Virus record (IMG/VR): IMGVR_UViG_3300020159_004070
Span: 1,465 to 65,464 of that record
DNA length: 64,000 bases
Source of the DNA: a virus
Taxonomy: Duplodnaviria; Caudoviricetes
Reading direction: 5' to 3' (one strand)
The position numbers and the translations under genes are program-made. This document shows, piece after piece, positions 1,873 through 47,914 of this stretch (position 1 is its first letter; each line of letters starts with the position of its first letter). Under the pieces are notes generated by a model, which ran no database searches, was not told the DNA's origin, and saw only the letters and a program-made list of their open reading frames with translations.

Positions 1873-1876
1873 CTAA

Positions 1877-3049: not shown

Positions 3050-3091
3050 TGAAATAAAAATGGAATTTTGCAATAAAATAAGGAAAAGATT

Positions 3092-3367
3092 ATGTCAAAC
3101 ACAACAAGATTAACTGACGAAGAATTAAAAAACGTATCTGAACTACGTAATGAAATATTCCAAAATGTGGAAATGCTTGGTAGGCTAAATATCCGTAAGC
3201 ATTTCCTACAAAAGGATTTAGGTGAGGTTGAAATGGAAATAATCGCACATTTGCAAAAATGTGAGGAGTTGGATTCAAAGGAAAGAGACCTAACTAATTC
3301 TATTGTTGAAAAATATGGGGAAGGAAATCTTGATTTTCAAACGGGCGAATATACACCTAAAGCTTAG
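3092..3367 (+). CDS. Small coiled-coil hypothetical phage protein
   Basis: 91 aa, helical, ends EKYGEGNLDFQTGEY. Confidence 0.6.
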   Translation: MSNTTRLTDEELKNVSELRNEIFQNVEMLGRLNIRKHFLQKDLGEVEMEIIAHLQKCEELDSKERDLTNSIVEKYGEGNLDFQTGEYTPKA

Positions 3368-3369
3368 AT

Positions 3370-8236: not shown

Positions 8237-9013
8237 ATGCCTAGAAGAAAACCAAAACCTGAGAGGGTTGTCCAAGAAAAAATTAAGGAAAGTCTAGATT
8301 CAATATTGAACGACGAAGACCTAGACTTTGATGCTGTTAAGGCTGAGGAATTGCCGAGACTTAAAACAACAGATCTGATGGATTTTTCCACTGCTCAGCA
8401 AACTACCGGGTCTGATGCAAAAAGTCTTTTAGATTCAATTGTTAAATTCTACCTCGACGAGAACTTTATCGACAAGGTAGATTATGTAGAATACAAGAAG
8501 AAAATTGATTCTATGAATCTAGCTTCTATGATGTTGCAATTGAAAACAGCACAACACGCTATCACCAAGTTGCTCGAAGAGATAGATTTGGGAAATGCGA
8601 ACCCAAGAATGTTTGAGGTTCTTGCTCAACTCCAATCCCAGATAATGCAAATGCCCAAGGACTACCAGAACTACGTTGATAAAATGGAAGAGGGGTACAA
8701 GAAAATTCAACACCAGATCGAAAAAAAATCTGATGTTGGATCTTTCACTTTGGAACCCAGCAACGACACCGAGGATAGTTTTTCTGCAAATCCAAATGGT
8801 GTTGGTGGAAATGGAATCAAGGTAAGAGGTACCAAGGGTCTGATGGAAGGATTACGAGACATCCTAGGATCTGAAATAGAGGATGTTAGAGTTGTCGAAG
8901 AGAATGACAACGCAGTGGTTAATGCGAAGAGGAAGGCTGAAATAGATGCTTCAAGAAACGTTTCTTTGAGTGATGAAGACTTCCTAGAGGTTGATGATGA
9001 CCTATTCAACTAA
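8237..9013 (+). CDS. Terminase small subunit (gp16-like), putative
   Basis: Immediately upstream of the large terminase; NPRMFEVLAQL resembles the gp16 PRxxEV motif. Confidence 0.6.
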   Translation: MPRRKPKPERVVQEKIKESLDSILNDEDLDFDAVKAEELPRLKTTDLMDFSTAQQTTGSDAKSLLDSIVKFYLDENFIDKVDYVEYKKKIDSMNLASMMLQLKTAQHAITKLLEEIDLGNANPRMFEVLAQLQSQIMQMPKDYQNYVDKMEEGYKKIQHQIEKKSDVGSFTLEPSNDTEDSFSANPNGVGGNGIKVRGTKGLMEGLRDILGSEIEDVRVVEENDNAVVNAKRKAEIDASRNVSLSDEDFLEVDDDLFN

Positions 9014-10914: not shown

Positions 10915-13900
10915 ATGGCAAAGAAAATCAAACTTGATTTATCCCAATTCAAAGCCTCCGGTGTTTATACATTAGAGTTTGATGCGTCGGAAAACGTAAT
11001 CCTGACATCTCAGACTATCAGACTGGTAGTAGGATTCTCAAATAAAGGACCTTTTAACGCTCCCGTTTACCTACCAGACGTAACAACTGCTATAGCAATT
11101 TTTGGAGACATTGATAAAACTTTGGAAGCGAAGGGATCCTTCTTTCAAAGATCAATCTTCACTTGTTTAGGACAAGGTCCAGTTTTCGGACTTAATCTTA
11201 TGGCGTTGAACGATGATATAGATAGTCCAACCGCGGACGTTGTTAATTACTTTGGCTACTCTGTTGACACTGAGCAATCAAACGGTGTTTTAACCTCTAG
11301 ACTGTATTCATCTTTTTACAACAAAGAAAGATTCTGGTTTGCTGATCCTGACTATTTCTTAGCTACACTTTCTACGGTAGATACTGGAAGACTCTTTAAC
11401 CTTGTTAATTTGGGAAAACAAGCGATGAGCGTTATTGTCAGAAAATCTACGGATGCTGTTCAGCCTCTTCAAGGTTACGATGTTTTTGCTATTGATTGGT
11501 ATGGTGCTGATAACGTACCTCCATTTATGCATCCTTACGATTACATCTCAGATTACTTTATCGATGTAATTTCGGTTTCAGGAAACTGGACTGATTACGA
11601 AACTCTTTCTCTAGATCCTAAATGGAGTGCTTATTTCACGAGAAATGGATTTATTAAAAGCCAAATCAATAATTTCCTATCACAACCGGATGTAAACATT
11701 GTCACTCAAACTACTGGATGTATCATTCCTGATTTTGTTGACTTGAATGGTAACAACCAGTACATCCAAACACTAATAAACAACAATACTCCTTCAACCG
11801 GGTTATTCTGCGCAGTAGACGAGGACGCTATGGATAGCATTTGTACCAATCCATACAAAATCGATCTAGTTGGGCATCACTTAATTGACGAGCTCACTGC
11901 AGATAGGGATATAGTTGATGCAAGATTGAACTTCTTGAGTTATGATCAGAATTTAACAGCTGATTACCTTTACTCACAGAACAGCACAGAAATCGACGAC
12001 AATGGAGTAGGTGCTCAAACAATAAAGACAGGAACATTATTTAGTTTGAGCTCTGCAACTGGAGCGACAGCTGGAGTTCTAGATACCGCCTTCGATGCTT
12101 ATTCAGCATCTCTTACTTATGGTGGATTACATTATATCAAGACAAACTCTGGCGTCACCGGTGCTTCTTTAACATCAGACCAAAAGCTAACACTTGCTTC
12201 TTTTGCAACACCGTCTACTACTGCATCTCCTTATGTCATAGGAAAAGTAGCGGGTCTTACTGGTTTAACTGGAAGTGTTATTAACCAGTTCGCTTCGAAC
12301 GACATTGTAAAACTTAAAATTTCAGGAGCTATTCAATCTGCCGGAGAAGTGATTCTGACTTGGACACACCCATTGGATACTCCGTCATATGCTGCTCAAG
12401 GCGTTACTGTCGTGCCTTATTCTAATTTAGTTGGAGCTACAGCTGGTTACATTGGAACAGGTTATTATCAAATAGCTGCTTCTGATTATTTAGATATCAC
12501 GGACGTTGATCCAGCAACTGGAGCAACTGCGGGTACACCTGATAACGTTCTCACTGGACAGATAAGTACACAATTCTATCAAGATGTATTATTTGAAGAA
12601 TTAGCTAACGGAGATCAGATTTGGTTAAACCAAACCGGAAGTTCTGTAAACTATGTAAGCTATGATCAAACAGTAGACAGGGATCAGTTCAACGTTACCT
12701 ATGCAAGAACTTTCTCTGGAGTTGAAAGGCTAAGCCCTGGACAATTAACAGACTATCCTGCATTTGGTTCAGTTTACGCTTCAGATAACATTGGTTTAAC
12801 TGTATCTGCTGGAAAAACAGATATTGTTTCTTCAGTTGGTTCTATCAACCAATTCATTGACGTTATTACACAAATTGATCCTACGAACTTCACTATTTCT
12901 TCCACCCCAAGTTCACCAATATCGGTGGGAGACCTAATCGTATCTACAGATTTAGATATTTGCGAAACTGTAGGGCAAAATAGACAAAACAGATTAACAA
13001 GAGTAACTGCCGTTGCACAGACAGCTACACAAAATGTTGTAAGGGTAACTACTGCTAGACCTATTTTATTCTACGCCGGAAGTCCTATCCAAGTACAAAA
13101 ATTCCAATCTATTCCTCAGTTCACTCGTTCATTCGACTTCACTTACCTACAAGGGTTCACTATGAGAGATTCTCACAGACCTAATGGTACTGACGTAAGA
13201 GTTTCTGAGATACTAGATGTAATGTATAACACAAATATTGCAGCCACATTAGCAGCTAAGGATGTTATTTCATTCCGATACATTGTCGATACATTCAGTG
13301 GACAAATCCTACCTAACTCAAAATACCAATTGAGTAAGTTGGCTATGATGAGACAAAAGGCTTTGGCTTTAATCAATGCTCCTTCGATGGCACAGTTTAG
13401 AGCATCCACTGATCCTAGATTTACAGATGCACCTACACAGGTTAATCCTTATCCTTCTTTGAAGGCTCAGTACATTTCAGAAGGAGGTAACCTATCACTG
13501 AACCCAACTTACACATTCAGTCTTCCAACAGAAGACCAAGGATCTAAGTTCGCAGCTTATTATACACCTTTTATAACTATCAGGGAAAATAATAAGAATG
13601 TAAACGTTCCACCAGCAGCATATGTTTCCAATAACTTTGTAAGAAAATTTGCAAACGGAGAACCTTACAGTATTATCGCCGGGCAGAAGAGAGGGGTAAT
13701 TTCCGGACAAAACGTAGTTGGTGTTGAATACGACTTCACTGATCAGGACAGAGGATGGTTAGAACCTGTAGGATTAAACCCGATCATCAAAAGAAGAAAT
13801 TTGGGTGTCGTTATCTTTGGTAACCAAACAGCTTACCAAACGGTTAACTCCGCCTTCAACCTTGTACACGTTAGAGATCTATTGATCAGCGTAGAAAACG

Positions 13901-14193
13901 ACGTTGAAGAAATCATGGCTAACTACCTATTCGACTTTAACGAGGATTCAATCAGGCTTGAAATTAAAACTTTGGTTGATAACTATCTTGATGGTGTAAG
14001 AGCAGGTGGAGGTATCTATGCTTACCAAGTAATCATGGATTCATCTAACAACCCTCCTTCAATTATCGATCAGAATATCGGAATCATCGATGTAATAATC
14101 GAACCAGCAAGAGGTATCCAAAAATTCATCAACAGAATTACAGTTACTAGAACTGGAGGTATCGCAGCTGGTGGATTTATACAGTTTGTATAA
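10915..14193 (+). CDS. gp18: Contractile tail sheath protein (gp18-like)
   Basis: N-terminal SGVYTLEFD and VGFSNKGPFNAP; C-terminal VPPAAYV, GLNPII, VIFGNQT, VHVRDLL, FDFNE and IEPARGIQKF. Confidence 0.93.
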   Translation: MAKKIKLDLSQFKASGVYTLEFDASENVILTSQTIRLVVGFSNKGPFNAPVYLPDVTTAIAIFGDIDKTLEAKGSFFQRSIFTCLGQGPVFGLNLMALNDDIDSPTADVVNYFGYSVDTEQSNGVLTSRLYSSFYNKERFWFADPDYFLATLSTVDTGRLFNLVNLGKQAMSVIVRKSTDAVQPLQGYDVFAIDWYGADNVPPFMHPYDYISDYFIDVISVSGNWTDYETLSLDPKWSAYFTRNGFIKSQINNFLSQPDVNIVTQTTGCIIPDFVDLNGNNQYIQTLINNNTPSTGLFCAVDEDAMDSICTNPYKIDLVGHHLIDELTADRDIVDARLNFLSYDQNLTADYLYSQNSTEIDDNGVGAQTIKTGTLFSLSSATGATAGVLDTAFDAYSASLTYGGLHYIKTNSGVTGASLTSDQKLTLASFATPSTTASPYVIGKVAGLTGLTGSVINQFASNDIVKLKISGAIQSAGEVILTWTHPLDTPSYAAQGVTVVPYSNLVGATAGYIGTGYYQIAASDYLDITDVDPATGATAGTPDNVLTGQISTQFYQDVLFEELANGDQIWLNQTGSSVNYVSYDQTVDRDQFNVTYARTFSGVERLSPGQLTDYPAFGSVYASDNIGLTVSAGKTDIVSSVGSINQFIDVITQIDPTNFTISSTPSSPISVGDLIVSTDLDICETVGQNRQNRLTRVTAVAQTATQNVVRVTTARPILFYAGSPIQVQKFQSIPQFTRSFDFTYLQGFTMRDSHRPNGTDVRVSEILDVMYNTNIAATLAAKDVISFRYIVDTFSGQILPNSKYQLSKLAMMRQKALALINAPSMAQFRASTDPRFTDAPTQVNPYPSLKAQYISEGGNLSLNPTYTFSLPTEDQGSKFAAYYTPFITIRENNKNVNVPPAAYVSNNFVRKFANGEPYSIIAGQKRGVISGQNVVGVEYDFTDQDRGWLEPVGLNPIIKRRNLGVVIFGNQTAYQTVNSAFNLVHVRDLLISVENDVEEIMANYLFDFNEDSIRLEIKTLVDNYLDGVRAGGGIYAYQVIMDSSNNPPSIIDQNIGIIDVIIEPARGIQKFINRITVTRTGGIAAGGFIQFV

Positions 14194-14243: not shown

Positions 14244-14798
14244 ATGGCTGGTTTACCACACTATCAAAATTCTCTAAGTGCAGTAAATAGGTTTGAACCC
14301 GTTTACCTCAACCAATTTGAGGTGAATGTTATCCCTCCTGGACCTGTTGCTGGAGGACCAATTCTGCTTGAGCATGTAATTTCTGTTGGTGGACTTGATG
14401 TAGATAAGAATCCTAGTTTTGTTGCTCAGAAATACAAATTCGCTAAGAGAAACTATGCTGGGGGTAAACCCGATACTACTACATTAGATTTGGCACTCAA
14501 GTTCAGTGTGAACTTGGATGATGCCAATTCGATGTATGTTTTTAAAACTTTGCGTCAGTGGACGGATTTAATTTACAATCCTCTTACAGGTGCTCAGGGA
14601 ATAAAAGCAGATTATGTTGGAACAATTATAATCTCGGTATTCAATAAGAACGGAGACGTATTCAGAAGAATTACCCTTAGAGATTGCTTCCCACTCAAAG
14701 CTATTGATCCGATGGAACTTGAATACACCAACGGTACCACCTTATATGAAATTAACATGACATGGGCGGTAGATTATTGGGAAGATTTATTCTTATAA
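14244..14798 (+). CDS. gp19: Tail tube protein 1 (gp19-like)
   Basis: Follows the sheath; EPVYLNQFEV, LRQWTDLIYNPLTG, DCFP and WAVDYW. Confidence 0.85.
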   Translation: MAGLPHYQNSLSAVNRFEPVYLNQFEVNVIPPGPVAGGPILLEHVISVGGLDVDKNPSFVAQKYKFAKRNYAGGKPDTTTLDLALKFSVNLDDANSMYVFKTLRQWTDLIYNPLTGAQGIKADYVGTIIISVFNKNGDVFRRITLRDCFPLKAIDPMELEYTNGTTLYEINMTWAVDYWEDLFL

Positions 14799-14813: not shown

Positions 14814-15392
14814 ATGGCAGGTTTACCTCATTTCAATAATTCAAAAGCAGCAAGAAACAACTACGAACCGGTTTTCTTAAACCAGTTTGAGGTTCTTATT
14901 ACTCCACCGCCAGCAGTAACTTTGGCTAACACAACTTTCAACGGGGAGAATATTCTGACTCAACAAGTTAAGAACATTTCAGCATTGCAGGTCGATATTC
15001 AACCATCAGACGCTGTTACACAATATTACAAGTTTGCTGAAAGGAGATATGCAGGGGGAGAACCTTCTACATCGGACGTTCAGTTCACAATGAGTTTTGA
15101 GGTTAACCTTAATGAGGCCAATTCGATGGCTATCTACAAGATTCTTAGACAATGGTCGGACTTAATTTACAATCCACTAACAGGTGCTATGGGATTAAAA
15201 AGAGATTATGTTGGTTCGATGGTGGTTTCTGTATTTAATAAGCAAGGTGATGTTTTCAGAAGAATCACCTTGAACAATTGTTTCTTGGTAGAAGCTATAA
15301 ATGCTATGGACTTGTCCTATGACTCAGGAGACGCTCTTTATACAATAGATACGACCTGGAAGTCAGATTACTGGAGAGATCTATTCTTATAA
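14814..15392 (+). CDS. gp19: Tail tube protein 2 (gp19-like paralogue)
   Basis: Clear paralogue of 14244-14798 (MAGLPH.., EPV.LNQFEV, LRQW.DLIYNPLTG, DVFRRITL). Confidence 0.85.
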   Translation: MAGLPHFNNSKAARNNYEPVFLNQFEVLITPPPAVTLANTTFNGENILTQQVKNISALQVDIQPSDAVTQYYKFAERRYAGGEPSTSDVQFTMSFEVNLNEANSMAIYKILRQWSDLIYNPLTGAMGLKRDYVGSMVVSVFNKQGDVFRRITLNNCFLVEAINAMDLSYDSGDALYTIDTTWKSDYWRDLFL

Positions 15393-18822: not shown

Positions 18823-19443
18823 ATGGCAAAGGAAAAAAACATTCAAGTTCTGGCAGAGAACTTCATCAAAACAAGGAACGAAAGGGAATTCAATCCTCTA
18901 TATGAAAGAGTAAGACCTGGAGTTTTAAATCATTGTTACACAATACTTAAAGATTTCGAATTAGCAGAAGATGCTTTTTCGAATGCAATGTCTAAGGTTT
19001 ATCTGAAGATAGATCAATATGATAGCGATCGTGGAAATTTCTCCACCTGGTGTTATAATATTGCAAGAAACGAATCTTTGCTATTACTTAAAAGCAGGAA
19101 GAGATACGTCACCCAAAGCGCTGAAGAAATGGAATTCACTTCAGCAAAGTCTGAAGAAAAGAACCCATCATATGATATTGAGGGAGATCCACTTTGGGAA
19201 TTTCTTTGTGGTGGATCAGATATAGACGATGTTTATGAGCAGGTCATAGACGAGATCAAAGATCTACCTGAGCTCTATCGTGAAATTATGATAGATAGAG
19301 AGATTAATGGAATGAAATACAAAGACATAGCCGACAAATACGGAATTAAGAAACGTTCTATAGCAACCCGAATCAGGAGGGCCAGAACTAAAATTCGTAA
19401 GAAAATGGAGGATGCTCTTGGAAAATCAAAATTTGATAACTAA
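18823..19443 (+). CDS. RNA polymerase sigma-70 family, ECF-type sigma factor
   Basis: Region 2 (AEDAF..FSTWCYNIARN) and region 4 (LPELYREI..GMKYKDIA..IATRIRRAR). Confidence 0.9.
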   Translation: MAKEKNIQVLAENFIKTRNEREFNPLYERVRPGVLNHCYTILKDFELAEDAFSNAMSKVYLKIDQYDSDRGNFSTWCYNIARNESLLLLKSRKRYVTQSAEEMEFTSAKSEEKNPSYDIEGDPLWEFLCGGSDIDDVYEQVIDEIKDLPELYREIMIDREINGMKYKDIADKYGIKKRSIATRIRRARTKIRKKMEDALGKSKFDN

Positions 19444-23591: not shown

Positions 23592-23685
23592 TATCAACAA
23601 ATTTCTTTTGTTTGTCTGAATATATAAATGGAAAAGTTTCAATATCACGATTGTGATATATAGAAAGCAAAAAAACATAAGTAGA

Positions 23686-26481
23686 ATGGATTTACTCAAT
23701 CAATTAAAAACACTAAGGGACAACACCACTAATCCCGAAGTCAAATCGGTTTGCGAATCTCACATAAGAAAAATTCAAAACGGTGAAGTTTTGAACGAGT
23801 CTGCTGTGATGGAATCTGTCGGACAAACAGTGAAAGAAACAGAAGGAACTACAATCAACCCTCTTGAAATGATCAGAAAGCAAGAGTTAGAGGCATCAAA
23901 GAATGCAGCACAAAAGCTGATGGAGTCTTGGTCTGGAGTTGGAAGTAAGTCTTCTAAAACATCTGGTTCTTACGTAGACGGTAAGACTGAAGAAAAAGAT
24001 CTTAGGATCGAACCTATCTCTGAAAGTTTAAAAGAGCTTATAGAGAAGGATCCTTCAGCAAAAGCTTTCATGAATTCACAAGGGGTCAATAATCTTGGTG
24101 TTTTTGAATCCATCCTTTCTTTGAAGGGCACTGGAATTTATGAACACCCAAACGTGAAAATCCTTTGTGAAAAATACGTACATCTACTTAAAAACAATAA
24201 TCTCCCAGAATATTTGGTAGCTGAGTCCTTTGTGACTGAGTTTCAGAATTTTTCATGGGATTCTAAAGTTAAAAATCTGATTGAGTCTATTGGCAATAAA
24301 ATATCTGGACTAAAACCAGAAATTGAAGTATCGAAAGCACTTTATTCTATTGAGAAAAGTGCAGGCTCAGATTTTTATTCCCCAGTAACTGAATCTTTGA
24401 ATAAGTGGTTAGTTTCAGAGAACAAGTCGGTTGCTATGCTATCTAAAGATCTTGCAAGATGGTCTTTCAATCCAACTGTAAAGAATTTGGTTAACACACT
24501 TTCCCTAATGGAGTCAACAGAATCCAAATTGGCTATTCCAGTACACAACGGTAACTCTTCTGTAAGAAGGGTATTTTCACCAGTACATGTTGCAGGTGGT
24601 AAAACCGTTTTCTCTATTGGAAACAACATCTTCGAAGGTGATTCTGAAGGAATCAGGAAAATTTCCAAAGCTCAATATGATGTTTTACCTGTAGATTTCA
24701 AATCTTTGTTAGAAGCTTTCTACTCACCGATGGTTAAAGTAAACGAGAACGGACTTTCATTCTTCGTTGGAAATCACACTTATAAATTGGTAGAAGAAAA
24801 TGATTCTGTAAGTATTTACACAAACGGAACTAAGCTTCAATTCTCGGATCTTAATCAGCTTGCAAAGCAAGTTGGCCTTGAAATCTCTGGATCTTTTGGA
24901 GTTAATGAATCAAAAGCAGTTTCTGACCTAATTAACGTTTACACAAATTTCGACAAAATTGTCGAGTTGGATTTTGCTAAAAGATTAGAGTCTAAGGTTT
25001 ACGAGGGTGCCTCGGTAAACATCATCAAATGGAATAACCAATTATACCTTAACAGAATCAACAATGCAATGAATGAGAATTCGCTTTACAAAGTGAATGG
25101 AACTCAGGCATCGAGCATGGTGAAGGAATTCTTGAAATATGATATTTCAGAAGGTCTTACAGAATTTTTGGAAGGTGAGACTAAAATCAAATCCATCATG
25201 ATCAATGATAGGAAACAAATTTTAGAAAACATCTCGGTAATCGAAAATGAGATTAACAAACTCGATACCTTGATGACAACCAACCCTCTCTACAATAACT
25301 CCAAAGAAATGCAAAGGGCTAAAATGATGCTCGAGCAGGAACTAAGTTCGCTAAGAAAGAAATGGTCAGCGGTGAACGAGGAGATTGAGAAAATAGACTC
25401 TTCGTCCGAAGAAATTCAAAATGTAAACGAGGACGAAAAATTCCAAGTTGGTGACTATGTTAAAGTTAAAGAATCAGGAAACACCGGAAAGATTATTTCT
25501 GTTGATTCTACCTCAGGTTCCTACACAGTTCTTATGGACAACGGACGTACTGGGGATTTTAGAATGGATGAGATCGTTGATATCGAGGAAGCTCTTAATA
25601 ACGCTGGAGAAGAAAACCAAGAGGATGATCAATCCCAAGAGGAAGTGAAAGAAAATGAAATGGCAATCGCTCCTTCTAAGGAAACTAAAGATTCTGTCGA
25701 TAAAACACCAGCGGCTACTCTCAAAGCAAATACATCTGCTGCTCCAACTGGCAAAGACCAAGATACTCCAGGAAAAAAGGATATCGAGAAAGAAGAGCAT
25801 GCTAATTTAGAAGAAGCACCTGAAGGAAGCCAGAAAGAGACTAACTATGAAATTAAAATCAAGGATTCTCTAGTTGACAAAGTTGGTTACAACGTGAACG
25901 AAGAGAATGATGAAGAGGTTGGTGATGCTGAAATTTCTGAAGGTGATATTGAAAAGAACTCACAGGAATTAGCAGAGGCTCCTGGAGGAAGAAGTAAAGC
26001 TAATTACGATTTAAAGGTTGCTCAAGGAGAAGAAAAAAATCCAGAAATCATGAAAACTGATGCTGCTTTGGCTTCTGCTCCCGGAGACGGACAAGGAATG
26101 AAAAAGCACAACGAGGTTGGAACAGAGATGGGATACAATCTTGATGAGGCATCAGAAATTGAAAAAACCAATCAGCAACTTGCAGTAGCACCAGGCGGAA
26201 CTAAAGAAATAGATTACGCGGTAAAGGTTACACAGGGTGATGAGAACAAGCCAGATGTTATGAATATAGATCCTGCTTTGGCAATTGCACCAGATGCTGG
26301 AGCTAAAGCTGATACTGATATCGAGGTAAATCACGAAATGGGATATAACCTTGACGAGGCTATTGAATTCTTGAAAAACAATAAAGATTCAAAAGAAGTT
26401 CAAGATTTTTTGAAGACTCTTTCTGGAGCAATCTCTAATGAGACTGCAATTGACGAAAGTGAAGAGTCAAAAAAAAACTAA
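23686..26481 (+). CDS. Large prohead-core-like protein with KOW/SH3-like domain and acidic repeats
   Basis: Start moved to ATG 23686 because a late promoter overlaps 23653. FQVGDYVKVKESGNTGKII is KOW-like; many [LIV]xE sites; repeated LAxAPG..MGYNLDEA units. Confidence 0.6.
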   Translation: MDLLNQLKTLRDNTTNPEVKSVCESHIRKIQNGEVLNESAVMESVGQTVKETEGTTINPLEMIRKQELEASKNAAQKLMESWSGVGSKSSKTSGSYVDGKTEEKDLRIEPISESLKELIEKDPSAKAFMNSQGVNNLGVFESILSLKGTGIYEHPNVKILCEKYVHLLKNNNLPEYLVAESFVTEFQNFSWDSKVKNLIESIGNKISGLKPEIEVSKALYSIEKSAGSDFYSPVTESLNKWLVSENKSVAMLSKDLARWSFNPTVKNLVNTLSLMESTESKLAIPVHNGNSSVRRVFSPVHVAGGKTVFSIGNNIFEGDSEGIRKISKAQYDVLPVDFKSLLEAFYSPMVKVNENGLSFFVGNHTYKLVEENDSVSIYTNGTKLQFSDLNQLAKQVGLEISGSFGVNESKAVSDLINVYTNFDKIVELDFAKRLESKVYEGASVNIIKWNNQLYLNRINNAMNENSLYKVNGTQASSMVKEFLKYDISEGLTEFLEGETKIKSIMINDRKQILENISVIENEINKLDTLMTTNPLYNNSKEMQRAKMMLEQELSSLRKKWSAVNEEIEKIDSSSEEIQNVNEDEKFQVGDYVKVKESGNTGKIISVDSTSGSYTVLMDNGRTGDFRMDEIVDIEEALNNAGEENQEDDQSQEEVKENEMAIAPSKETKDSVDKTPAATLKANTSAAPTGKDQDTPGKKDIEKEEHANLEEAPEGSQKETNYEIKIKDSLVDKVGYNVNEENDEEVGDAEISEGDIEKNSQELAEAPGGRSKANYDLKVAQGEEKNPEIMKTDAALASAPGDGQGMKKHNEVGTEMGYNLDEASEIEKTNQQLAVAPGGTKEIDYAVKVTQGDENKPDVMNIDPALAIAPDAGAKADTDIEVNHEMGYNLDEAIEFLKNNKDSKEVQDFLKTLSGAISNETAIDESEESKKN
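25945..26362 (+). repeat. Two imperfect copies of a ~70-aa coding repeat
   Basis: IEK...LAxAPGG...Y.xKV.QG.E..P.xM..D.ALAxAP.......V..EMGYNLDEA appears twice, with a weaker copy upstream. Confidence 0.7.
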
Positions 26482-26708: not shown

Positions 26709-27068
26709 ATGGCAAAAGCTTATGTAAAAAATGCGGACCTGATGGCTGCCATTCTTGCGTCTAAAGAAAAGGGGCAGTTAACCAACGAAACTATCGAGAT
26801 GTTTGGATTAATGGTTCAGGGGATATCTAAGAAAATGGCGTATAGGGATCCAGAAGATAAAGCAGATTGTATGGCTTTTGCTATGGAAGACTTGGTTAAG
26901 TATTGGAACAGATTTGATCCTACTAAATCAAACAATCCTTTTGCTTATTATACGCAGATTGCTAAGAATGGTTTTGCTAAAGGATGGAAAAAAATTCATC
27001 CACCAAAATCTCCTAAAACTATCCCGTTCTCACACATCACCGGCGAGGACAATTCATATAATGTTTAG
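26709..27068 (+). CDS. gp55: Late-transcription sigma factor (T4 gp55-like)
   Basis: YVKNADL and FDPTKSNNPFAYYTQIAKNGF hallmark motifs. Confidence 0.85.
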   Translation: MAKAYVKNADLMAAILASKEKGQLTNETIEMFGLMVQGISKKMAYRDPEDKADCMAFAMEDLVKYWNRFDPTKSNNPFAYYTQIAKNGFAKGWKKIHPPKSPKTIPFSHITGEDNSYNV

Positions 27069-27073: not shown

Positions 27074-27559
27074 ATGCCAGATATAAAGAAAATAAAACCC
27101 AATGGGGATTATAAATCTGGCCTGTATGTACCAAGAAATCCTGAAAAATATATTGGGGACGTTCACAATATAATATGCAGATCCTCCTGGGAGTTTAGAT
27201 TCTGCAAGTATTGCGATAATAACGAGAAAATCCTGAAATGGAGTTCGGAGCCAATTAAAATTCCTTACTATAATCCTTTAGATAAAAAAGACCACCAGTA
27301 TAATGTGGACTTTTACATGCAAGTCTTAAAAGACGATGACACTACACAGGATTGGATAGTAGAGGTAAAACCCCAATCACATTTTAAAAAACCATTGCTA
27401 GAGGGGAATGCAACTTTAGCTAAGCTCAAGTCATACAACCACAAAATGCAAGTGTGGATTACCAATCAGGCAAAATTTAAAGCAGCTCAAAGATGGGCAG
27501 ATGCTAGAGGTTACAGATTCGGTGTTGTAGATGAAAATTTCCTGTTCAAGAGTAAGTGA
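27074..27559 (+). CDS. gp4: Head completion nuclease (T4 gp4-like, TnsA-N fold)
   Basis: PRNPEKYIGD, RSSWE, WSSE.I.IPY, VDFY, EVKP and NQAKF..A. Confidence 0.88.
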   Translation: MPDIKKIKPNGDYKSGLYVPRNPEKYIGDVHNIICRSSWEFRFCKYCDNNEKILKWSSEPIKIPYYNPLDKKDHQYNVDFYMQVLKDDDTTQDWIVEVKPQSHFKKPLLEGNATLAKLKSYNHKMQVWITNQAKFKAAQRWADARGYRFGVVDENFLFKSK

Positions 27560-28191: not shown

Positions 28192-29835
28192 ATGGCTGGA
28201 TTCAACGAAAACCAAAGCGGTAACCCCGTCTTTCAAAGAATTAGAGACTCAGTAAAGTCTTTAAGTAACTTTGGAATGCGATATGGTGACATGGTCATCA
28301 AAAACTCTCAAGCTATTGGTGCGATTGAGGCTGAATTCATGAAGAAGCAAACCATCGATGATGAGAATTTGCTTTATTCTTTAGGTAGACAAGATACTAC
28401 AACTAGACAATTCATAGGATATTTCGATAAGGATTATCCGGGCAAGAGGGACTACCTCAGGAAGTTTGCACTGAACCCTGAAATAGAGTATATTCTTGAC
28501 ACAGTTTGTGACGAATCAATTACGTATGATTCATACAACTTCTTTGCTTATCCAGCTTTTTTAAATCTTACCGATGTCAAAGACAAGGTAAAGGATCGAA
28601 TAAACGAAAATTACAAAAAGCTTTATGAAATGTTTGGCTTTACTGATGACGTCAGCGGCTGGCAATATTTCAAGCAGCTTTTGGTAGATGGATTCATAGC
28701 ATTTGAGATCGTTTATGATGATAAAGGAAAAAACATCATTGGTTTCAAAGAACTAGATGCTACCACTTTGATGCCCTCGGTGGAAAAACAACCGGATGGT
28801 ACTTATCTAAGTGTTTGGTGGCAATATCCTAAAGATATAAATAAGAAAAGGATGCTTTATGACTCCCAAGTCATCTACATTTCTTATGCAAAAGGTAACA
28901 CTGTCTCCAGGGTCAGTTATACAGAACGCCTGATCAGACCTTACAACATCCTAAGAATCATTGAATACACCAGGGTTATTTGGTCAGTAATGAATGCTTC
29001 TTTTAGAATGAAGATGACTGTTCCGATTGGATCTAGATCACCACAAAAGGCAATGCAAACCTTAGGTGAGCTTATGAGCATCTATAAGGAAGATATTAGA
29101 TTCAATGATGAAAGTGGGGAACTTACAGTTGATGGAAGGCCAAAGATCCAATTTTACAAGAACTACCTTATGCCTTCTGGTGTCAACGGTACGCCAACTA
29201 TAGAGCCATTGAATACTGCTGGTCCTAACCTTAATGATCCTGCACCACTTGCATATTTCTTCGATAAGCTCGTACAAGAATCTAAAATTCCTTTTTCTAG
29301 ATTTCAAGGTCCTGATGGTGGTTCAATTGGTAATTATTCGAACGGTGCTGAAGGATTGGACAAGGAAGAAATAAGATTTGCTAAGTTTATAAACAGGTTA
29401 AGGTCAATATTCCAGGATATTTTGGTTAAACCTCTTTGGATCCAAACAGTAAAAGATTTTCCTGAATTAGAAAAGGACTACTTATTTAAGAGCCAACTGG
29501 GCCTAAATTTCGTTTCGGATAACCCATTCAGGATGAATCAGGAGATTGAAACGATGACTGCTAAGAAAACCCAAATCGAATCAATGTACGCTCTGACTGA
29601 TGATACCGGAGCACCATATTTCTCTTTAGCTTATCTTATTGAAAATTACCTTGGAATGACTCAGGATGACATAAAGGCTAATAAAGAAGCCAGGAAGAAA
29701 AGAAGTGAAGAGGAGAAGAAGAAAGCTAAAGAAGCTGCCGCTGCAGCTCCAGCCGCCGAAGCTCCAGCTGAGGAGGCACCAGCTGAAGCTCCAGCTGAGG
29801 AAGCACCTGCTGAAACCCCTCCACCAACAGAATAA
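28192..29835 (+). CDS. gp20: Portal protein 1 (gp20-like)
   Basis: LRKFALNPEIEYILD, FKQLLVDG.IAFE, SY.ERLIRPYN.LRIIE, IETL-like region and EEIRFAKFINRLRSIF. Confidence 0.9.
   Translation: MAGFNENQSGNPVFQRIRDSVKSLSNFGMRYGDMVIKNSQAIGAIEAEFMKKQTIDDENLLYSLGRQDTTTRQFIGYFDKDYPGKRDYLRKFALNPEIEYILDTVCDESITYDSYNFFAYPAFLNLTDVKDKVKDRINENYKKLYEMFGFTDDVSGWQYFKQLLVDGFIAFEIVYDDKGKNIIGFKELDATTLMPSVEKQPDGTYLSVWWQYPKDINKKRMLYDSQVIYISYAKGNTVSRVSYTERLIRPYNILRIIEYTRVIWSVMNASFRMKMTVPIGSRSPQKAMQTLGELMSIYKEDIRFNDESGELTVDGRPKIQFYKNYLMPSGVNGTPTIEPLNTAGPNLNDPAPLAYFFDKLVQESKIPFSRFQGPDGGSIGNYSNGAEGLDKEEIRFAKFINRLRSIFQDILVKPLWIQTVKDFPELEKDYLFKSQLGLNFVSDNPFRMNQEIETMTAKKTQIESMYALTDDTGAPYFSLAYLIENYLGMTQDDIKANKEARKKRSEEEKKKAKEAAAAAPAAEAPAEEAPAEAPAEEAPAETPPPTE
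29731..29820 (+). repeat. AEAPAEE low-complexity coding repeat at the C-terminus of portal 1
   Basis: GAAGCTCCAGCTGAGGA(G/A)GCACC repeats. Confidence 0.75.
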
Positions 29836-29843
29836 GATAAGAA

Positions 29844-31460
29844 ATGGCAGGATTTTTAGATTACGTTCAGGAAAGATCTTTTATGGGTAACCTGTATAAG
29901 AACCTTTCTCGTATAGGAAGGTTTGGTATGGAGTACCAAGATATGGTTATCAGAAACTCTCAAGCTATCGGTGCAACGGAGTCAAATTTCATTGGAGAAC
30001 ATGGAACCGGATTCACTGAAAATGACGCATTTTACTGGACACTAGGTTATCAGGATACTAAGGTTAGAAAATACATTGCCTATTTCGATAAAGATTATGT
30101 CGGGAAAAGAGACTTCCTTCGAAAGTTTTCACTCAACGGAGAGATAGATTTTATTTTAGATACTCTTTCTGATGACGCAATAAATTACGATGACAAAAAT
30201 TTCTTCGGTTATCCCGCGCTTTCAAATATTGATCTCAAACCAGAAGTTGTAGAAAAGCTTGATGAGACTTTCCGAAAATTGTACATGCTGTTTGGATTCC
30301 AGCAAAGTGTTCTTGCCTGGCAATACTTCAGGCAGTTTTTAATTGATGGTTTCCTTGCTTTTGAAATTGTTTATGCAACCGACGGAAAACAGATCGTGGG
30401 TTTCAAAGAATTAGATCCGACATCCCTCCAACCTGCAACGGAACCTCAGCCTAATGGTGAGTTTGAACAAATTTGGATTCAGTACCCACAGGATAACAAA
30501 ATGACGAGGAGGTTAAAAAGTGAGCAGGTGATCTATATTTCTTACGCTAAGGGAAATACTATCTCTAGAGTAAGCTACGTTGAAAGGTTGATAAGATCAT
30601 ACAATATCCTGAGAATCATGGAAAACACCCGTGTAATCTGGAATGTGATGAATGCCTCCTATCGTCTAAAGTTTGTAATACCTGTTGGATCTCAGTCCCA
30701 ACAAAAAGCAATGCAAACCCTGGGGCAGCTGATGTCGATATACAAGGAAGAAATTGAATTAAATGATACATCTGGGGAATTAACAGTAAATGGTAGACCC
30801 AAGGTTCAGTTTTACAAAAATTATCTTTTCCCAGAAAAAGACGGCCAATCTCCACAAATTGAAACTTTGGATCCTAATGGACCAGATTTCAATGTCATGG
30901 AAAATGTCGTTTATTTTTACAATAAATTAAAGCTGGACTCTAAGATCCCTTATGCAAGATTTGCATTCAGAGGTGGAACTCCGGCAAACTACCAAATCAG
31001 TATTGATCAGTTAGAAAGAGACGAGATAAGATTTGAAAAATTTCTGACCCGTCTTCGTTCTATTTTCCAAGAGATTATGGTAAAACCCTTGTACATTCAA
31101 ATGTGTTTGGATTTTCCTGAACTATCGAAAGACAATGCTTTTAAGTCCAACTTAGGTTTAGATTTTGTCAGAGAGAACCTATTTGAAGAAATGATCCAGT
31201 TACAGAACTACACAAAGAGAACCGAGTTTATTAATTCTCTAGGGGAAATGAAACAAAAGATAGGTGAGGAGGAAGAAGCCTATTTCGATAAAGACTTTCT
31301 CATTTCTAGGTACATGGGCTTAACTATGGACGAGATCAAGAAAAACAAGCTCTACAAGAAAAAAGAGGAGGAAGAAGCAGAGAAAAGAGCTAAGGAGAAA
31401 GAGAAAGAAGGTGGAGGCGAAGGTGAAGAAGGAGCTGCAACGCCTGAATTTACTCTTTAA
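29844..31460 (+). CDS. gp20: Portal protein 2 (gp20-like paralogue)
   Basis: Colinear paralogue of portal 1: IRNSQAIGA, YFDKDY.GKRD.LRKF, VIYISYAKGNT.SRVSY.ERLIR, GRPK.QFYKNYL, RDEIRFEKFL.RLRSIFQ. Confidence 0.9.
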   Translation: MAGFLDYVQERSFMGNLYKNLSRIGRFGMEYQDMVIRNSQAIGATESNFIGEHGTGFTENDAFYWTLGYQDTKVRKYIAYFDKDYVGKRDFLRKFSLNGEIDFILDTLSDDAINYDDKNFFGYPALSNIDLKPEVVEKLDETFRKLYMLFGFQQSVLAWQYFRQFLIDGFLAFEIVYATDGKQIVGFKELDPTSLQPATEPQPNGEFEQIWIQYPQDNKMTRRLKSEQVIYISYAKGNTISRVSYVERLIRSYNILRIMENTRVIWNVMNASYRLKFVIPVGSQSQQKAMQTLGQLMSIYKEEIELNDTSGELTVNGRPKVQFYKNYLFPEKDGQSPQIETLDPNGPDFNVMENVVYFYNKLKLDSKIPYARFAFRGGTPANYQISIDQLERDEIRFEKFLTRLRSIFQEIMVKPLYIQMCLDFPELSKDNAFKSNLGLDFVRENLFEEMIQLQNYTKRTEFINSLGEMKQKIGEEEEAYFDKDFLISRYMGLTMDEIKKNKLYKKKEEEEAEKRAKEKEKEGGGEGEEGAATPEFTL

Positions 31461-31470: not shown

Positions 31471-32478
31471 ATGAAAATAAAAAATATCGTTTCTTCGAAG
31501 AAGATTTTAGTTATCGGGGACGTTATATTAGATCACTATATCCACGGTAGGGTATTCAGAGTTTCTCCAGAAGCTCCAGTTCCAGTAGTTTTAAAGAGTA
31601 ATTCCGTTTATTGTCTTGGCGGAGCTGCAAACGTTGCTCAAAATGTTACCTCTTTTGGTTCTGAGTGTTACTTGCTTGGAATAACAGGTTTAGATCAATC
31701 TGGTGAAATAGTGAAAGAACTGTGCAAACAGAAAGGGGTGATAACTATGTTGGTTGAAGACCCAGCCAGAGTAACTACTGAAAAGACCAGAATTGTTGGC
31801 AACAATCACCAAATAGCAAGGATTGATTCGGAAAGCACTGAACCAATCTCGGAACACATCCAAAATTTATTGTTGCAAGAATTTGAAAGAGTAATCTCTA
31901 TAATTGACGGAGTCATAATACAGGATTATGGGAAAGGATTGTTGACAGAAATCATACTGCAAGAAATAATTAGCAGATGTAAGAAATACGAAAAGGTCGT
32001 ATTGGTTGACCCTAAAGAAAAGGATTTTAATCGATATAGTGGAGCTGATTGGATAAAACCTAATCTTTCTGAATTGAAAAATGCTGCTGAAATACAGGCC
32101 CACAAATCTCTTTCAGTCGATGAAATAATTAAAGTGGGTGACCAAATCAGAAAGAATTTCAGCTTTGGTAATATTTTAGTTACTATGTCCGAAAATGGAA
32201 TGCTTGCTAAAGGTGAAAATTTTTCAGAAACAGTCGACGGTTATAAGATTGATGTAACAGATGTCTCTGGAGCGGGAGATACAGTTAGTGCTGTTTTCAT
32301 GCTTATGCACCTTTCTGGGGTTTGCATAAAGGACACATTGGATATTTCTAATCTCGCTGGATCTATGGTTTGTAGGATTTCTGGCGCAGTTCCAATAAAC
32401 ACAAATGACTTATTCGTGGAAGCATTGAACTTGGGAATGTGTTTAGAGAATTCTTTTTTCGAGAATTTACTGGTTTAA
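31471..32478 (+). CDS. rfaE1: D-glycero-D-manno-heptose-7-phosphate kinase (HldE/RfaE kinase domain, PfkB family)
   Basis: ILVIGDVILDHY, RVSPEAPVPV, GGAANVAQN, KTRIV, QDYGKG, VDPK, KPNLSE and DVSGAGDTV. Confidence 0.92.
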   Translation: MKIKNIVSSKKILVIGDVILDHYIHGRVFRVSPEAPVPVVLKSNSVYCLGGAANVAQNVTSFGSECYLLGITGLDQSGEIVKELCKQKGVITMLVEDPARVTTEKTRIVGNNHQIARIDSESTEPISEHIQNLLLQEFERVISIIDGVIIQDYGKGLLTEIILQEIISRCKKYEKVVLVDPKEKDFNRYSGADWIKPNLSELKNAAEIQAHKSLSVDEIIKVGDQIRKNFSFGNILVTMSENGMLAKGENFSETVDGYKIDVTDVSGAGDTVSAVFMLMHLSGVCIKDTLDISNLAGSMVCRISGAVPINTNDLFVEALNLGMCLENSFFENLLV

Positions 32479-44146: not shown

Positions 44147-46159
44147 ATGGACGAACTTTCTTTATTAAATGAAAACCTTCTTTTCATTCTAGAAAAGCAA
44201 AACACTAAGCTAGAGGTTTCTAAAACAGATGAGAACTCTGATGGAGCCTACATACTTAAAGGTATTGCAGCACAGTTTGGAAAAGAAAATAACAACAGCA
44301 GGATCTATGAAGAGGGCGAGTATCTTCCGCATCTAGATTACTTGAAAGACAAAATCAAACAAAACAGGCTAGTTGGTGAATTAGACCACCCTGAAAAGTT
44401 TGACGTTTCTTTGAAAAACATTTCTCACGTGATTCAGGATCTTATTTACGATAAGGAAGGAAGAGTTATTAATATCGAAGTCCGTTTGCTTGATACCCCT
44501 GCTGGACAAATTGCTAAATCTCTTGTAGATGCTGGAATTCCTCTTTCTATTTCTTCAAGAGCAGCCGGAAACGTTGGACCTGACAAAAAGGTGCAGATCA
44601 AGAAAATTTTCACTTACGATCTAGTAGCTGACCCTGGATTTCAGGACGCTCAATTAGAAAGAGTATACGAAAGCGCCGGATTTAACTCGTTTGAAATCGA
44701 AGAAAGGTCAAAAAAATCGATTCTTAATAGTTTAGAATGTGTAAATGAATCTCTAGGAATAGAAAATGAATCTGGAGTGAAGATATATAAAGTTGAAAAT
44801 AACGAAGAATTCGAAAAAATATTCAATCAAGAAAAAAATAAATCCAACGTTATGGAGGCCAACAAAGAATATGTAACTGCAGACGAGCTCAACAAATACT
44901 CGATCTTTTTGAAGAAAAAGATGGATGAGCTTGAAACGCAGATTTCAGAAATGAAAAACACTCAGCCAGTGGCTGAATCTAACAATTCCGAGATTAATAC
45001 CGCTCTGGAAGAAAGAGTTGCTAAACTTGAGAAATATTCAGAATATTTAGCAGAGAATTTAGAAAGTGCAATTAAGTATGGCGAGTACCTTGCAGAAAAT
45101 CTAGATTCAAGCATCACTTATTCAAAGTATCTCGCTGAAAACCTAGATAAGACGATTTCTTATTCCAAGTACTTGGCCGAAAACGTAGACAAGGGAATCT
45201 CTTATTCTGAGTATGTTGCGGAAAACGTTGATAAAGCAATTGATTATTCTAAGTATTTAGCTGAAAAACTTGACGACGGAATTCAATACACTGAATATGT
45301 AGCTGAAAACCTAGATAAGAATATCGCTTACTCTGAGTATTTAGCAGAAAACGTAGACAAAGGAATAGCTTACTCTGAGTATTTGGCTGAAAACCTTGAC
45401 AAAGGTATCGCTTATTCGGAATACATCGCAGAAAACCTTGACAAAGGAATTGCTTACTCTGAATACATCGGAGAAAAACTTGAGCAAGGATTAAACTACT
45501 CTGAGTACATCGCAGAAAACTTGAACAAAGGAATTGCTTACTCAGATTATCTAGCTGAAAAGCTAAATGGAAATATCAATCAAACTGAGTCTATCTCAGA
45601 AAGCATCAAAGGAACTTCTCATGCATCTCTTAATGAAAATGCAAGAAGCAATGCAGAATTTGTTGCTAACACCGAATTGGTCGAGTCTGGTTTCGCTGGA
45701 GATTACACAAATCTTAGCAGCAAAATCGATTCTCTAATTGAATCAGTCAAAACACAGAAGACTGAAACAAATATAAACGAGGCTAGAGCGAAAGTTCAGC
45801 CGACTGCTCAAACTCAAAAAGCAGATCAGGTAATTAATGAAGCACAAGAAGTTTCAGAGGCAAAATCATCAGGATTTAAATTCATCGATGAAATGCCAGA
45901 AAATTATGCTCCGATTTGGGAATCTCTAAATGAAGGACAAAAGCAATCTATTATTGCTCAGTCACATTTTTACAATTTAGAGACAGCTTATCAGATCAAG
46001 AATTTCTGGTCAACTCGTCAACTTGGTGCCAAGCCAGTTGGACTTCAAAAACTTCAAGAAAGCCAAGAAACAACAGAAACCCCTGCAAGCAAAGCTACTC
46101 AAGCATATTCTTCGGATTACTTGAATTGGGTTGCTAAATCGCTTGAAGGAAAATTCTAA
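44147..46159 (+). CDS. gp21: Prohead protease (gp21-like) fused to scaffold (gp22-like)
   Basis: ENNNSRIY, GELDHP, ISHVI, LLDTPAG, ISSRAAG and YDLVADPGF, followed by coiled-coil YxxYLAE repeats; directly upstream of the capsid gene. Confidence 0.9.
   Translation: MDELSLLNENLLFILEKQNTKLEVSKTDENSDGAYILKGIAAQFGKENNNSRIYEEGEYLPHLDYLKDKIKQNRLVGELDHPEKFDVSLKNISHVIQDLIYDKEGRVINIEVRLLDTPAGQIAKSLVDAGIPLSISSRAAGNVGPDKKVQIKKIFTYDLVADPGFQDAQLERVYESAGFNSFEIEERSKKSILNSLECVNESLGIENESGVKIYKVENNEEFEKIFNQEKNKSNVMEANKEYVTADELNKYSIFLKKKMDELETQISEMKNTQPVAESNNSEINTALEERVAKLEKYSEYLAENLESAIKYGEYLAENLDSSITYSKYLAENLDKTISYSKYLAENVDKGISYSEYVAENVDKAIDYSKYLAEKLDDGIQYTEYVAENLDKNIAYSEYLAENVDKGIAYSEYLAENLDKGIAYSEYIAENLDKGIAYSEYIGEKLEQGLNYSEYIAENLNKGIAYSDYLAEKLNGNINQTESISESIKGTSHASLNENARSNAEFVANTELVESGFAGDYTNLSSKIDSLIESVKTQKTETNINEARAKVQPTAQTQKADQVINEAQEVSEAKSSGFKFIDEMPENYAPIWESLNEGQKQSIIAQSHFYNLETAYQIKNFWSTRQLGAKPVGLQKLQESQETTETPASKATQAYSSDYLNWVAKSLEGKF
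44782..44789 (+). promoter_or_regulatory. Intragenic late promoter for a nested scaffold
   Basis: Exact GATATATA just after the protease domain, followed by an A-rich leader and an in-frame ATG at 44852. Confidence 0.55.
45035..45570 (+). repeat. 13 tandem 42-nt (14-aa) coding repeats, consensus YSEYLAENLDKGIA
   Basis: Counted directly in the translation; third-position variation shows selection at the protein level. Confidence 0.9.
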
Positions 46160-46192: not shown

Positions 46193-47914
46193 ATGAAACT
46201 AATCAACGAAGCGGAAATCTTCGATACCTGGGGCCCGATCGTAGAGCAGAAGGCTGGAATCGTAGATACCGAGAAAAAACAGTGGTTGAGCAAGTATTGC
46301 CACTACCACTCCTTAAATGAATCTGCTGGAGCTTACCAGTCTCTTGCAGTAGTAAACGGTATGGGTGCCGTACAACCACCCGCTTATCCTGGTGGATACA
46401 ACTCCTTAGGTAACGCAGTAGGTACGCAAGCTAACGCTGCTTTCTACAACGCTGCTAACCAAGGATCTGGCGACAAGTTCCCATCACTTCTTCCTCTTGC
46501 AATTCAGGTTGCTGCGAAGACAGTTGGTTTCGATATCGTTCCAGTTATCCCAATGTCAGGTCCTACTGGCGTACTTTCTTACCTAGATTACGTATACTCT
46601 GGTGGTAAAATTGCTCCATCAAACGTTGGATCTACTGCAGCTGATGCTTTGGCTGTTGCTCCATCTATGATCAAGTTTAACCTTACCTCTCCTGCATCTG
46701 GTTACCCTGCAAACTTCGTAGTAGGTACTACTTACTACATCCAGAACGCAACTTCTGCTTCTGCAGAAATTACAACTGAGTTTGTTGGTCTTTCAAGAAT
46801 TGATGGCTTCCCAATCTTCAGAATTATGGGTATCACCGCTGGTGAAACTGTAGCTGATGTACTTGACGGTGGTGCTACTAAAATTGGTACTTCTTCAGGA
46901 GGTACTCAGGCTGGTACTACAACTGCAAGAGCAGAATTGGTAAAAGCTCTTGAGGATCACATCCAAGGATTCTCTGGTGCTGGTTTCAACAACGACCAAG
47001 ACTGGCAAGGACCTTTCGTAGACGGTACTAAGACTTACAACCCAATGTTAAGAGGTGTAGGTGAAAGCACTTACTACAACTCAATGGGTCTTTCGACTTT
47101 CACTAAGTTCGTAGAAGCTGACACTTTCCAAGTTGCTGCTTCTGTAACTACAGAGCAAATCCAAGACCTTAACAAGCAGTTCGGTATCGACGTAATCTCT
47201 ATGATCGAGAACGCACTTGTAAACGAGGTTTCACAAGCAATCAACAAGCACATCCTATCTAGAGCATTTGCTCTTGGTTGGTCTAACCACTATGAGTTCT
47301 TTACTACAGAAGGACAAAACTTGAACTTGAACCTCGTTATCGGTGGTACTGCAGGTTCATACACAATCCCTTCATACGTAGGTAAGTCTGATACTGGTCT
47401 TACTCTTGCTGGTACTGCTGGTCCTGCTTCAGGAACTTACGAGAACTTGTCAACTCTTCAGAGAAGACTATTCTCTAGAATCCTTGCTGGTGCTAACGTA
47501 GTTGCTAACAGAGGTAGAAGAGGTCCTGCTAACTTCATCGTTACTAACGCTAACGTTGCAAGTGCACTTCAGGACATCTCTCAGTTCACTTTCGCACCTT
47601 TCTCTAACACGTTGACTCAAAACAACGGTACACTTTACCCTGTAGGTTCGCTTGCTGGTATGACTGTATACGTTGATCAAAACATGACGTTCAGCGATAA
47701 CAGAGTACTTATCGGAAGAAAAGGTGGTGACGACGAACCAGGACTTAAGTTCATGCCTTACATGATGGCTGAGTCTATCCAAACAATCTCAGAAGGTACA
47801 ATGTCTCCTAAGATTGCGGTTAAATCTCGTTACGCTCTAGTAGAAGCTGGTTTCCACCCAGAAACTCTTTACTTCTGCTTCCACGTAAACGTTCCTGCTG
47901 GCGGTTTATCCTAA
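46193..47914 (+). CDS. gp23: Major capsid protein (gp23-like)
   Basis: LNE cleavage site, VPVIPMSGPTG, TEQIQDL, NEVSQAINK, RGRRGPANFIV, G.LAGMTVYVD, FMPY and PKIAVKSRYAL; strongly biased codons. Confidence 0.95.
   Translation: MKLINEAEIFDTWGPIVEQKAGIVDTEKKQWLSKYCHYHSLNESAGAYQSLAVVNGMGAVQPPAYPGGYNSLGNAVGTQANAAFYNAANQGSGDKFPSLLPLAIQVAAKTVGFDIVPVIPMSGPTGVLSYLDYVYSGGKIAPSNVGSTAADALAVAPSMIKFNLTSPASGYPANFVVGTTYYIQNATSASAEITTEFVGLSRIDGFPIFRIMGITAGETVADVLDGGATKIGTSSGGTQAGTTTARAELVKALEDHIQGFSGAGFNNDQDWQGPFVDGTKTYNPMLRGVGESTYYNSMGLSTFTKFVEADTFQVAASVTTEQIQDLNKQFGIDVISMIENALVNEVSQAINKHILSRAFALGWSNHYEFFTTEGQNLNLNLVIGGTAGSYTIPSYVGKSDTGLTLAGTAGPASGTYENLSTLQRRLFSRILAGANVVANRGRRGPANFIVTNANVASALQDISQFTFAPFSNTLTQNNGTLYPVGSLAGMTVYVDQNMTFSDNRVLIGRKGGDDEPGLKFMPYMMAESIQTISEGTMSPKIAVKSRYALVEAGFHPETLYFCFHVNVPAGGLS

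Follow-up and report, generated by a model that had tools for sequence, protein, structure and literature searches.

In tailed phages and herpesviruses the portal is the most conserved part of the machine, and in every case studied it consists, to our knowledge, of twelve identical protein subunits arranged in a ring. Here we describe a stretch of 64,000 nucleotides of virus DNA (Duplodnaviria; Caudoviricetes), corresponding to positions 1,465 to 65,464 of IMG/VR record IMGVR_UViG_3300020159_004070 and referred to below as the window, in which two portal genes of the T4 gp20 type lie one directly behind the other. The record itself is 65,464 bp long, has a G+C content of about 37% and is rated 23% complete. 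The two genes, called A and B throughout, and the short spacer that separates them are as follows:

28192..29835, plus strand: portal paralogue A, the upstream copy, T4 gp20 type, complete; open reading frame (ORF) of 547 amino acids (aa) with an ATG start
29836..29843: spacer of 8 nt from the stop of A to the start of B, read from the sequence
29844..31460, plus strand: portal paralogue B, the downstream copy, T4 gp20 type, complete; ORF of 538 aa with an ATG start

A first-pass annotation of the window had pointed to two colinear, intact gp20-like reading frames of these lengths, 8 nt apart, and the ORF list confirms them.

Family, fold and spread of the portal pair

The two proteins are identical at 263 of 500 positions (53%, E = 0, BLASTP), and each matches the Portal_T4 family, PF07230, over nearly its full length, A with 209.3 bits (E 1.1e-61, model positions 7-432 of 433) and B with 208.4 bits (E 2.1e-61, model positions 9-429 of 433), where the gathering cut-off is 22.9 bits. 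This agrees with the earlier description of the pair as diverged copies that share a common core. Each is likewise a match to phrog_213 (portal protein). When modelled with AlphaFold2 from alignments of 53 rows, A reaches a mean predicted local distance difference test (pLDDT) score of 71.3 and B one of 70.3, the parts of low confidence being the clip loops and the tunnel loop, and the top PDB matches of both models in Foldseek are chains of T4 gp20 (9MKB, 6UZC, 9LU7 and 3JA7), with a probability of 1.00, E values of 6e-18 (A) and 8e-18 (B) and template modelling (TM) scores of 0.49-0.62. Searching the PDB by sequence with A returned gp20 entries only, and the predicted models of both proteins display the clip, stem, wing and crown of a T4-type portal. 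Judged from sequence and predicted structure, A and B are full-length portals of the T4 gp20 type.

The likeness to T4 gp20 (PF07230; PDB 3JA7, 6UZC, 9MKB, 9LU6/9LU7) consists of the end-to-end family match and the best structural matches, although the identity of A and B to gp20 in structural alignments is merely 16-20%. Moreover, gp20 is the product of one gene and forms a homo-dodecamer, whereas two paralogues have been kept here; where one portal gene per genome is expected of the T4 type, the window contains exactly two, adjacent to each other.

The same tandem pair is present at 212 related IMG/VR loci on 209 distinct contigs (three contigs occurred in two of the locus sets), a recurrence that excludes chance. 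In 78 of the 80 IMG/VR loci that best match A, an orthologue of A (70-92% identical) has an orthologue of B (67-93%) immediately behind it, and in the remaining two the contig edge lies just past A. A second subclade, reached through a representative sequence (P0001), has the pair in all 80 of its loci, with a first gene 56-59% identical to A and a second gene 54-60% identical to B. Scans with three outgroup representatives gave 173 further loci, of which 54 have two copies, 72 have a single, well-flanked copy (with at least 1.8 kb on either side of the portal) and 47 have a single copy but flanks too short for a verdict. The first gene is at least 65% identical to A in every one of the 54 further two-copy loci; in all 72 of the well-flanked single-copy loci the portal is about equidistant from A and B, at 41-52%. 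Two relatives of another representative (P0002), L179 and L180, are cut by contig ends and are uninformative. Searches of whole records gave exactly two adjacent portal matches in 9/9 long relatives (115-230 kb) and a single match in LR756500 (complete, 462 kb). What appeared to be a second place for a portal in LR756501 and LR756503 was rejected as a further example, being a fragment of 101 aa located far away from the true portal.

The junction between A and B is also found in independent assemblies. In 4/4 runs, which come from four studies of lake, estuary and freshwater samples, Logan contigs bridge it with between 0 and 8 differences, and one Logan contig of 4,792 nt spans A and B entirely.

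Duplication, constraint and the C-terminal ending

In a quick tree of 99 rows (LG+G4) the orthologues of A form a clade with support of 100, as do those of B, and A and B together are again supported at 100. A second quick tree, covering both subclades and made after removal of the last 45 residues, groups the upstream copies (99) and the downstream copies (98), with all four groups in one clade (97). Separate duplications, modelled by holding the copies of the window's subclade together, were rejected by the approximately unbiased (AU) test (p = 0.02). Since the upstream and the downstream clades each span the subclades, the trees indicate a single old duplication which predates the subclade split and was followed by parallel co-divergence of the two copies. 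Jumbo phages of freshwater and estuaries, which form a large clade that is both abundant and widespread, have kept two portal genes since that one event.

Both copies are constrained. Using the Nei-Gojobori method, the ratio of non-synonymous to synonymous change (omega) has a median of 0.019 for A (interquartile range 0.013-0.029) and 0.025 for B (0.015-0.038), and its maximum over both genes is 0.056. The sample comprised 136 loci with both copies complete, among which 81 of 9180 locus pairs had a synonymous divergence (dS) between 0.05 and 1 in both genes; the pairs that were dropped were too close or saturated. These values indicate strong purifying selection on A and B alike. The phylogeny and selection check across relatives that had been called for at the outset therefore yields one old duplication and two constrained copies, and the relaxed selection on one paralogue that had been named as evidence to the contrary is not seen. 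Every domain of gp20 is retained by both proteins. No more than nine positions are fixed differently between the paralogues, three of them in the clip, and 130 near-invariant positions are shared.

The identity of A to B varies strongly along the protein. Using T4 domain limits given in part of PMC4493910, the values for the window's two copies are:

stem helix alpha5: 83%
C-terminal wing: 68%
clip: 63%
N-terminal wing: 57%
stem alpha7: 44%
N-terminus: 36%
crown: 30%
tail: 26%
tunnel-loop region: 24%

By these domain assignments the parts that form the ring and face outwards (stem, clip and wing) are the most alike, and those that have drifted apart are the parts turned towards the DNA and the inside of the capsid (tunnel-loop region, crown and C-terminal tail), together with the N-terminus.

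The two genes are closely linked wherever they occur. In 205 loci the start of B lies -1 to 22 nt from the stop of A (median 6), and this invariably tiny gap suggests equimolar synthesis. In the window there is no promoter-like or terminator-like site between A and B, and no Shine-Dalgarno-like sequence upstream of the start of either gene. Such an arrangement would be consistent with co-transcription of both from one late operon.

The earlier claim that the copies have differing charged tails is borne out by their C-termini:

29707..29832, plus strand: C-terminal tail of A (residues 506-547), an Ala/Pro/Glu repeat without a hydrophobic last residue, ending in ...EAPAEEAPAEAPAEEAPAETPPPTE
31356..31457, plus strand: C-terminal tail of B (residues 505-538), rich in Lys, Glu and Gly and ending in ...PEFTL, an acidic tail of the ancestral type

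T4 gp20 ends in ...DPDQEQEDF, that is, in an acidic tail with F as its last residue, and one copy here keeps an acidic tail of this kind, likewise closed by a hydrophobic residue. The last residue is hydrophobic in 106/110 single-copy relative loci, many of which are close kin, and in 64/111 cluster representatives, against a background frequency of 0.34. In 68 of the 71 paired loci of the window's subclade only the downstream copy has the ending, in the form xFTL, while both copies carry it in the other three; all 40 distinct downstream copies of this subclade end in a hydrophobic residue, any residue and an aliphatic residue. Over the last 35 residues proline makes up a mean fraction of 0.16 in A and 0.01 in B. 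The second subclade has the reverse arrangement, in that it is the upstream copy which ends in EF[KT]L or similar (60/65 loci under a strict rule). A third group is 65-70% identical to A, with contigs reaching 430 kb; here the two copies usually share a short terminal motif (APEVTL, PPQVTL or ETATL, for example), which is common to the two copies of a genome and differs between genomes.

When 127 distinct pairs were drawn from 183 paired loci, the hydrophobic last residue was found on the downstream copy only in 48, on the upstream copy only in 29, on both in 50 and on neither in 0. The last six residues are identical at five or more positions within a genome in 22/127 pairs, compared with a cross-genome rate of 2.6%, and in two loci (L080 and L177) the final 30-40 bases of both copies are near-identical, with the adjoining upstream sequence about 50% identical. 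The 3' ends of A and B evidently recombine in some genomes, by gene conversion. In our reading both copies would have begun with the ancestral ending, and either copy may lose it, but never both. This pattern of loss points to a shared and partly redundant function of the ending at the capsid-interior end of the portal.

A second component of the DNA conduit is doubled in the same manner. The window contains two tail-tube genes:

14244..14798, plus strand: tail-tube paralogue 1, 184 aa (phrog_32623, E 1e-36; phrog_45 tail tube, E 1e-11)
14814..15392, plus strand: tail-tube paralogue 2, 192 aa (phrog_32623, E 4e-33; phrog_45, E 8e-11)

They are 56% identical in a self-BLAST of the window's ORFs, and two adjacent copies occur in 9/9 long relatives and one in LR756500, which indicates that the tail-tube gene has been doubled in the same clade as the portal. 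Both the portal pair and the tube pair are found again in a collinear relative of 230 kb (G001); there TerL, the sheath and the protease are without a paralogue, and the sole paralogue match of the capsid gene is an 82-residue stretch of a 158-aa ORF (42.7% identity).

Several other paralogue sets are found elsewhere in that relative. A third tandem pair lies in the window at 52761-53660 and 53665-54594, on the plus strand, its members being 59% identical and without a family match. This pair was considered as part of the portal story and rejected, as it has a match in merely one of the five relatives searched and behaves as a variable accessory pair.

A proposed mixed portal ring and its alternatives

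We propose that A and B are subunits of one mixed portal ring, a proposal that we regard as evenly poised between right and wrong. Both would be working portal subunits, made together from one late operon, and would assemble into the same dodecameric ring at a single portal vertex, most simply as an alternating A6B6 ring. The parallel doubling of the tube suggests that the whole DNA conduit may be built from two kinds of subunit. For this proposal we infer co-transcription, the presence of both proteins in the virion, their physical co-assembly and their stoichiometry, the six-plus-six ratio being purely inferred. What a heteromeric ring would lead us to expect, that both paralogues are retained and constrained, is found, with the pair at 212 loci and omega about 0.02 for each copy. 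A single ring is also the most economical account, because the copies are under equal constraint, the ring-forming parts are conserved, synthesis appears to be coupled, the ending is interchangeable and recombines, and there is a precedent for mixed portals in T4.

That precedent is artificial. Baumann, Mullaney and Black reportedly engineered mixed T4 portals of wild-type and GFP-fused gp20 in 2006. According to passages of PMC9958956, T4 portals still function when as many as about half of their subunits are altered gp20 with GFP at either end. As described there, such portals (wild-type gp20 with GFP-gp20 or gp20-GFP) resemble the present pair in combining subunits of two kinds, distinguished at a terminus, but their stoichiometry is random, whereas the pair described here is natural, anciently diverged over its whole length and genetically fixed. 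Homomeric rings have become heteromeric by gene duplication elsewhere, as in the alpha and beta rings of the proteasome, in CCT and in the proteolipid ring of the V-ATPase. The likeness is that a ring subunit was duplicated and both copies then had to be retained; the difference is that co-assembly has been demonstrated for those rings. A preprint on a poxvirus 'portal' heterododecamer was rejected as a precedent, as the proteins are unrelated.

A more specific form of the proposal is more doubtful, and we put it forward only tentatively. This is that the portal is an obligate alternating A6B6 ring, which would hard-wire the drop from 12-fold to 6-fold symmetry, would be coupled to a two-subunit tail tube, so that paired paralogues would line the entire path of the DNA from head to host, and would need the ending on only half of its subunits. 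In T4, following the relevant part of PMC12929587, the portal, with its 12-fold symmetry, adjoins a dodecamer of gp13, beyond which lies a hexamer of gp14. An alternating A6B6 ring is itself 6-fold, and any relevance of this to gp13/gp14 symmetry is speculation. If true, an obligate A6B6 ring would be the first natural heteromeric portal in any tailed phage or herpes-like virus. More generally, the clade provides a natural test of which portal functions (head nucleation, motor docking, DNA gating and neck attachment) need twelve identical subunits, and illustrates a route from a symmetric viral machine to a heteromeric one, with the pattern of C-terminal endings as a concrete experimental handle.

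Several considerations weigh against one mixed ring. The evidence for contact between A and B, for their co-expression and for their presence in virions is at most indirect, and a search for RNA runs that contain the sequence returned none. The suggestion of a hetero-oligomeric portal in the first-pass annotation is supported in part: the pair is conserved, the gap between its members stays small and the ending is never lost from both. Two separate rings that share a partner would fit every argument from sequence equally well. The crown, tunnel loop and tail also show the lowest conservation when orthologues are compared, and the divergence between A and B in these parts may therefore merely reflect low constraint. 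The count of 0/127 pairs without the ending rests on about three lineages and is thus phylogenetically weak. One copy is interrupted in 3/212 loci, namely by an in-frame TAG in A of L076 (codon 201) and of L141 (codon 328) and by a split reading frame of B in L050 (at about 8255-8282). Recoding of the two stop codons was rejected, because the residues aligned with them (K/P/M/N/A and S) are inconsistent, and for the same reason we take these stops to be errors or rare nonsense variants. Finally, a heteromeric portal of a tailed phage was not found in searches of the full-text literature (subscription journals and supplements lying outside), which gives a mixed ring a low prior; within the same scope, two portal paralogues in one phage genome are undescribed, and the parts of the jumbo-phage survey PMC7824862 that were covered describe neither. 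An uncontrolled prediction of the complex between A (residues 20-510) and B (residues 20-515) from the 53-row alignments scored 0.01 against a mark of 0.32 and counts neither way.

The strongest alternative, which we nevertheless think unlikely, is that A and B form two separate homo-dodecamers with divided roles. One might be the capsid ring and the other a stacked channel extension or adaptor; the two portals might occupy two vertices; or they might be alternative portals that give rise to two virion types. Both copies are full-length, complete in fold and strongly constrained, so that each could form its own ring, as gp20 does, and the nine paralogue-specific fixed residues, three of them in the clip, fit such a division, as would the doubled tube gene if there were two alternative conduits. 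However, the hydrophobic ending is carried by the downstream copy in one subclade and by the upstream copy in another, and is homogenised in a third, and these swaps are hard to reconcile with fixed, distinct roles of the two cores. The invariably tiny gap, with the equimolar synthesis that it suggests, also speaks against separate rings, and tailed-phage heads nucleate on one portal, as described for T4 head assembly in sections of PMC9958956. For the variant with two specialised vertices, which had been raised alongside the hetero-oligomeric portal, no specific support emerged.

It is also conceivable, although we consider it improbable, that one copy is the structural portal and the other a non-virion helper, which might chaperone assembly, regulate the initiation or expansion of the prohead, or act as a decoy for portal-sensing host defences. 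Defence systems that sense portals do exist, and the presence of both copies in the virion is itself a supposition. Changes at the C-terminus of gp20 alter the control of prohead expansion in T4, according to passages of PMC9958956, which would be in keeping with a regulatory role. Nevertheless, selection on A and B is equal and very strong, and both retain all domains at full length, including the clip, the stem and the parts that line the channel, unlike a helper or decoy, which would be expected to shed some of these constraints. Moreover, the copy which keeps the ancestral tail ending is interchangeable, which also fits poorly with a fixed division into portal and helper.

An artefact, either an assembly chimera of two strains, as the first-pass annotation had considered, or a recent and unstable duplication, has nothing in its favour and is so improbable that it can be set aside, given that the junction is bridged in 4/4 runs from four studies, that the pair stands on 209 distinct contigs and that the copies are merely 53% identical and co-diverge in parallel clades.

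Gene order, relatives and neighbouring genes

The portal pair lies among morphogenesis genes whose order in the window is that of T4. TerL, sheath, tube, portal, protease and major head protein follow one another as do T4 genes 17-18-19-20-21-23. In addition to the portal and tube genes listed above, the relevant features are:

5667-8222: neck protein with a gp14-like domain (gene-order annotation)
9020-10813: TerL (gene-order annotation)
10915-14193: sheath (gene-order annotation)
between the tube genes and the gp55-like gene: tape-measure-like gene
26709-27068, plus strand: gp55-like late sigma factor, two genes upstream of the portals
27074-27559: gp4-like head-closure protein, directly before the portals in the listed order
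44147-46159: prohead protease, downstream of the portals
46193-47914: major head protein, downstream of the portals

The label of jumbo phage given in the first-pass annotation fits this uncultured freshwater phage, since collinear relatives extend to 230 kb (85% complete) and the same pair occurs on contigs of up to 430 kb. By portal sequence, the huge phages LR756500-LR756504 and LR745206 come closest among catalogued phages, with 35-45% identity, followed by Lak phages at 34% and, more distantly, by PAU and Tenacibaculum phages at less than 31%. The LR756500-LR756504, LR745206 and Lak phages (the lineage of Al-Shayeb et al. 2020) thus hold the nearest catalogued portals, 34-45% identical, but differ in that their portal is single-copy, LR756500 having one portal and one tube.

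A contig of 70 kb from a GTDB genome (L355), whose portal is 88% identical, is binned in a metagenome-assembled genome of an uncultured Saprospirales (Bacteroidota). Together with portal starts that lack a Shine-Dalgarno sequence, this binning gives a weak hint of a Bacteroidota host. Membership of the clade of bS21-encoding huge Bacteroidetes phages, as portrayed in parts of PMC9723584, was considered and rejected, since a Ribosomal_S21 match is absent from the window's record; the passages of that paper on these phages do not mention a second portal.

Among the other genes of the window, an RNA polymerase sigma-factor-like gene at 18823-19443 (plus strand) is a second transcription-factor gene beside the gp55-like one. 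An ORF of 942 aa at 23653-26481 (plus strand) is without a family match and is 53% identical in the 230-kb relative; its C-terminal half repeats units with 'LAxAPGG...' and '...MGYNLDEA', and it could be an internal head or scaffold-type protein. Directly after the portals, at 31471-32478 (plus strand), lies a PfkB-family carbohydrate kinase, and sugar-handling genes also occupy positions 499-5597 (plus strand), comprising three glycosyltransferase-like genes and a GT9 heptosyltransferase-like gene (4419-5597). Finally, an asparagine synthase-like gene at 55081-56478 (plus strand), with glutamine amidotransferase and Asn_synthase domains, is kept in the 230-kb relative.

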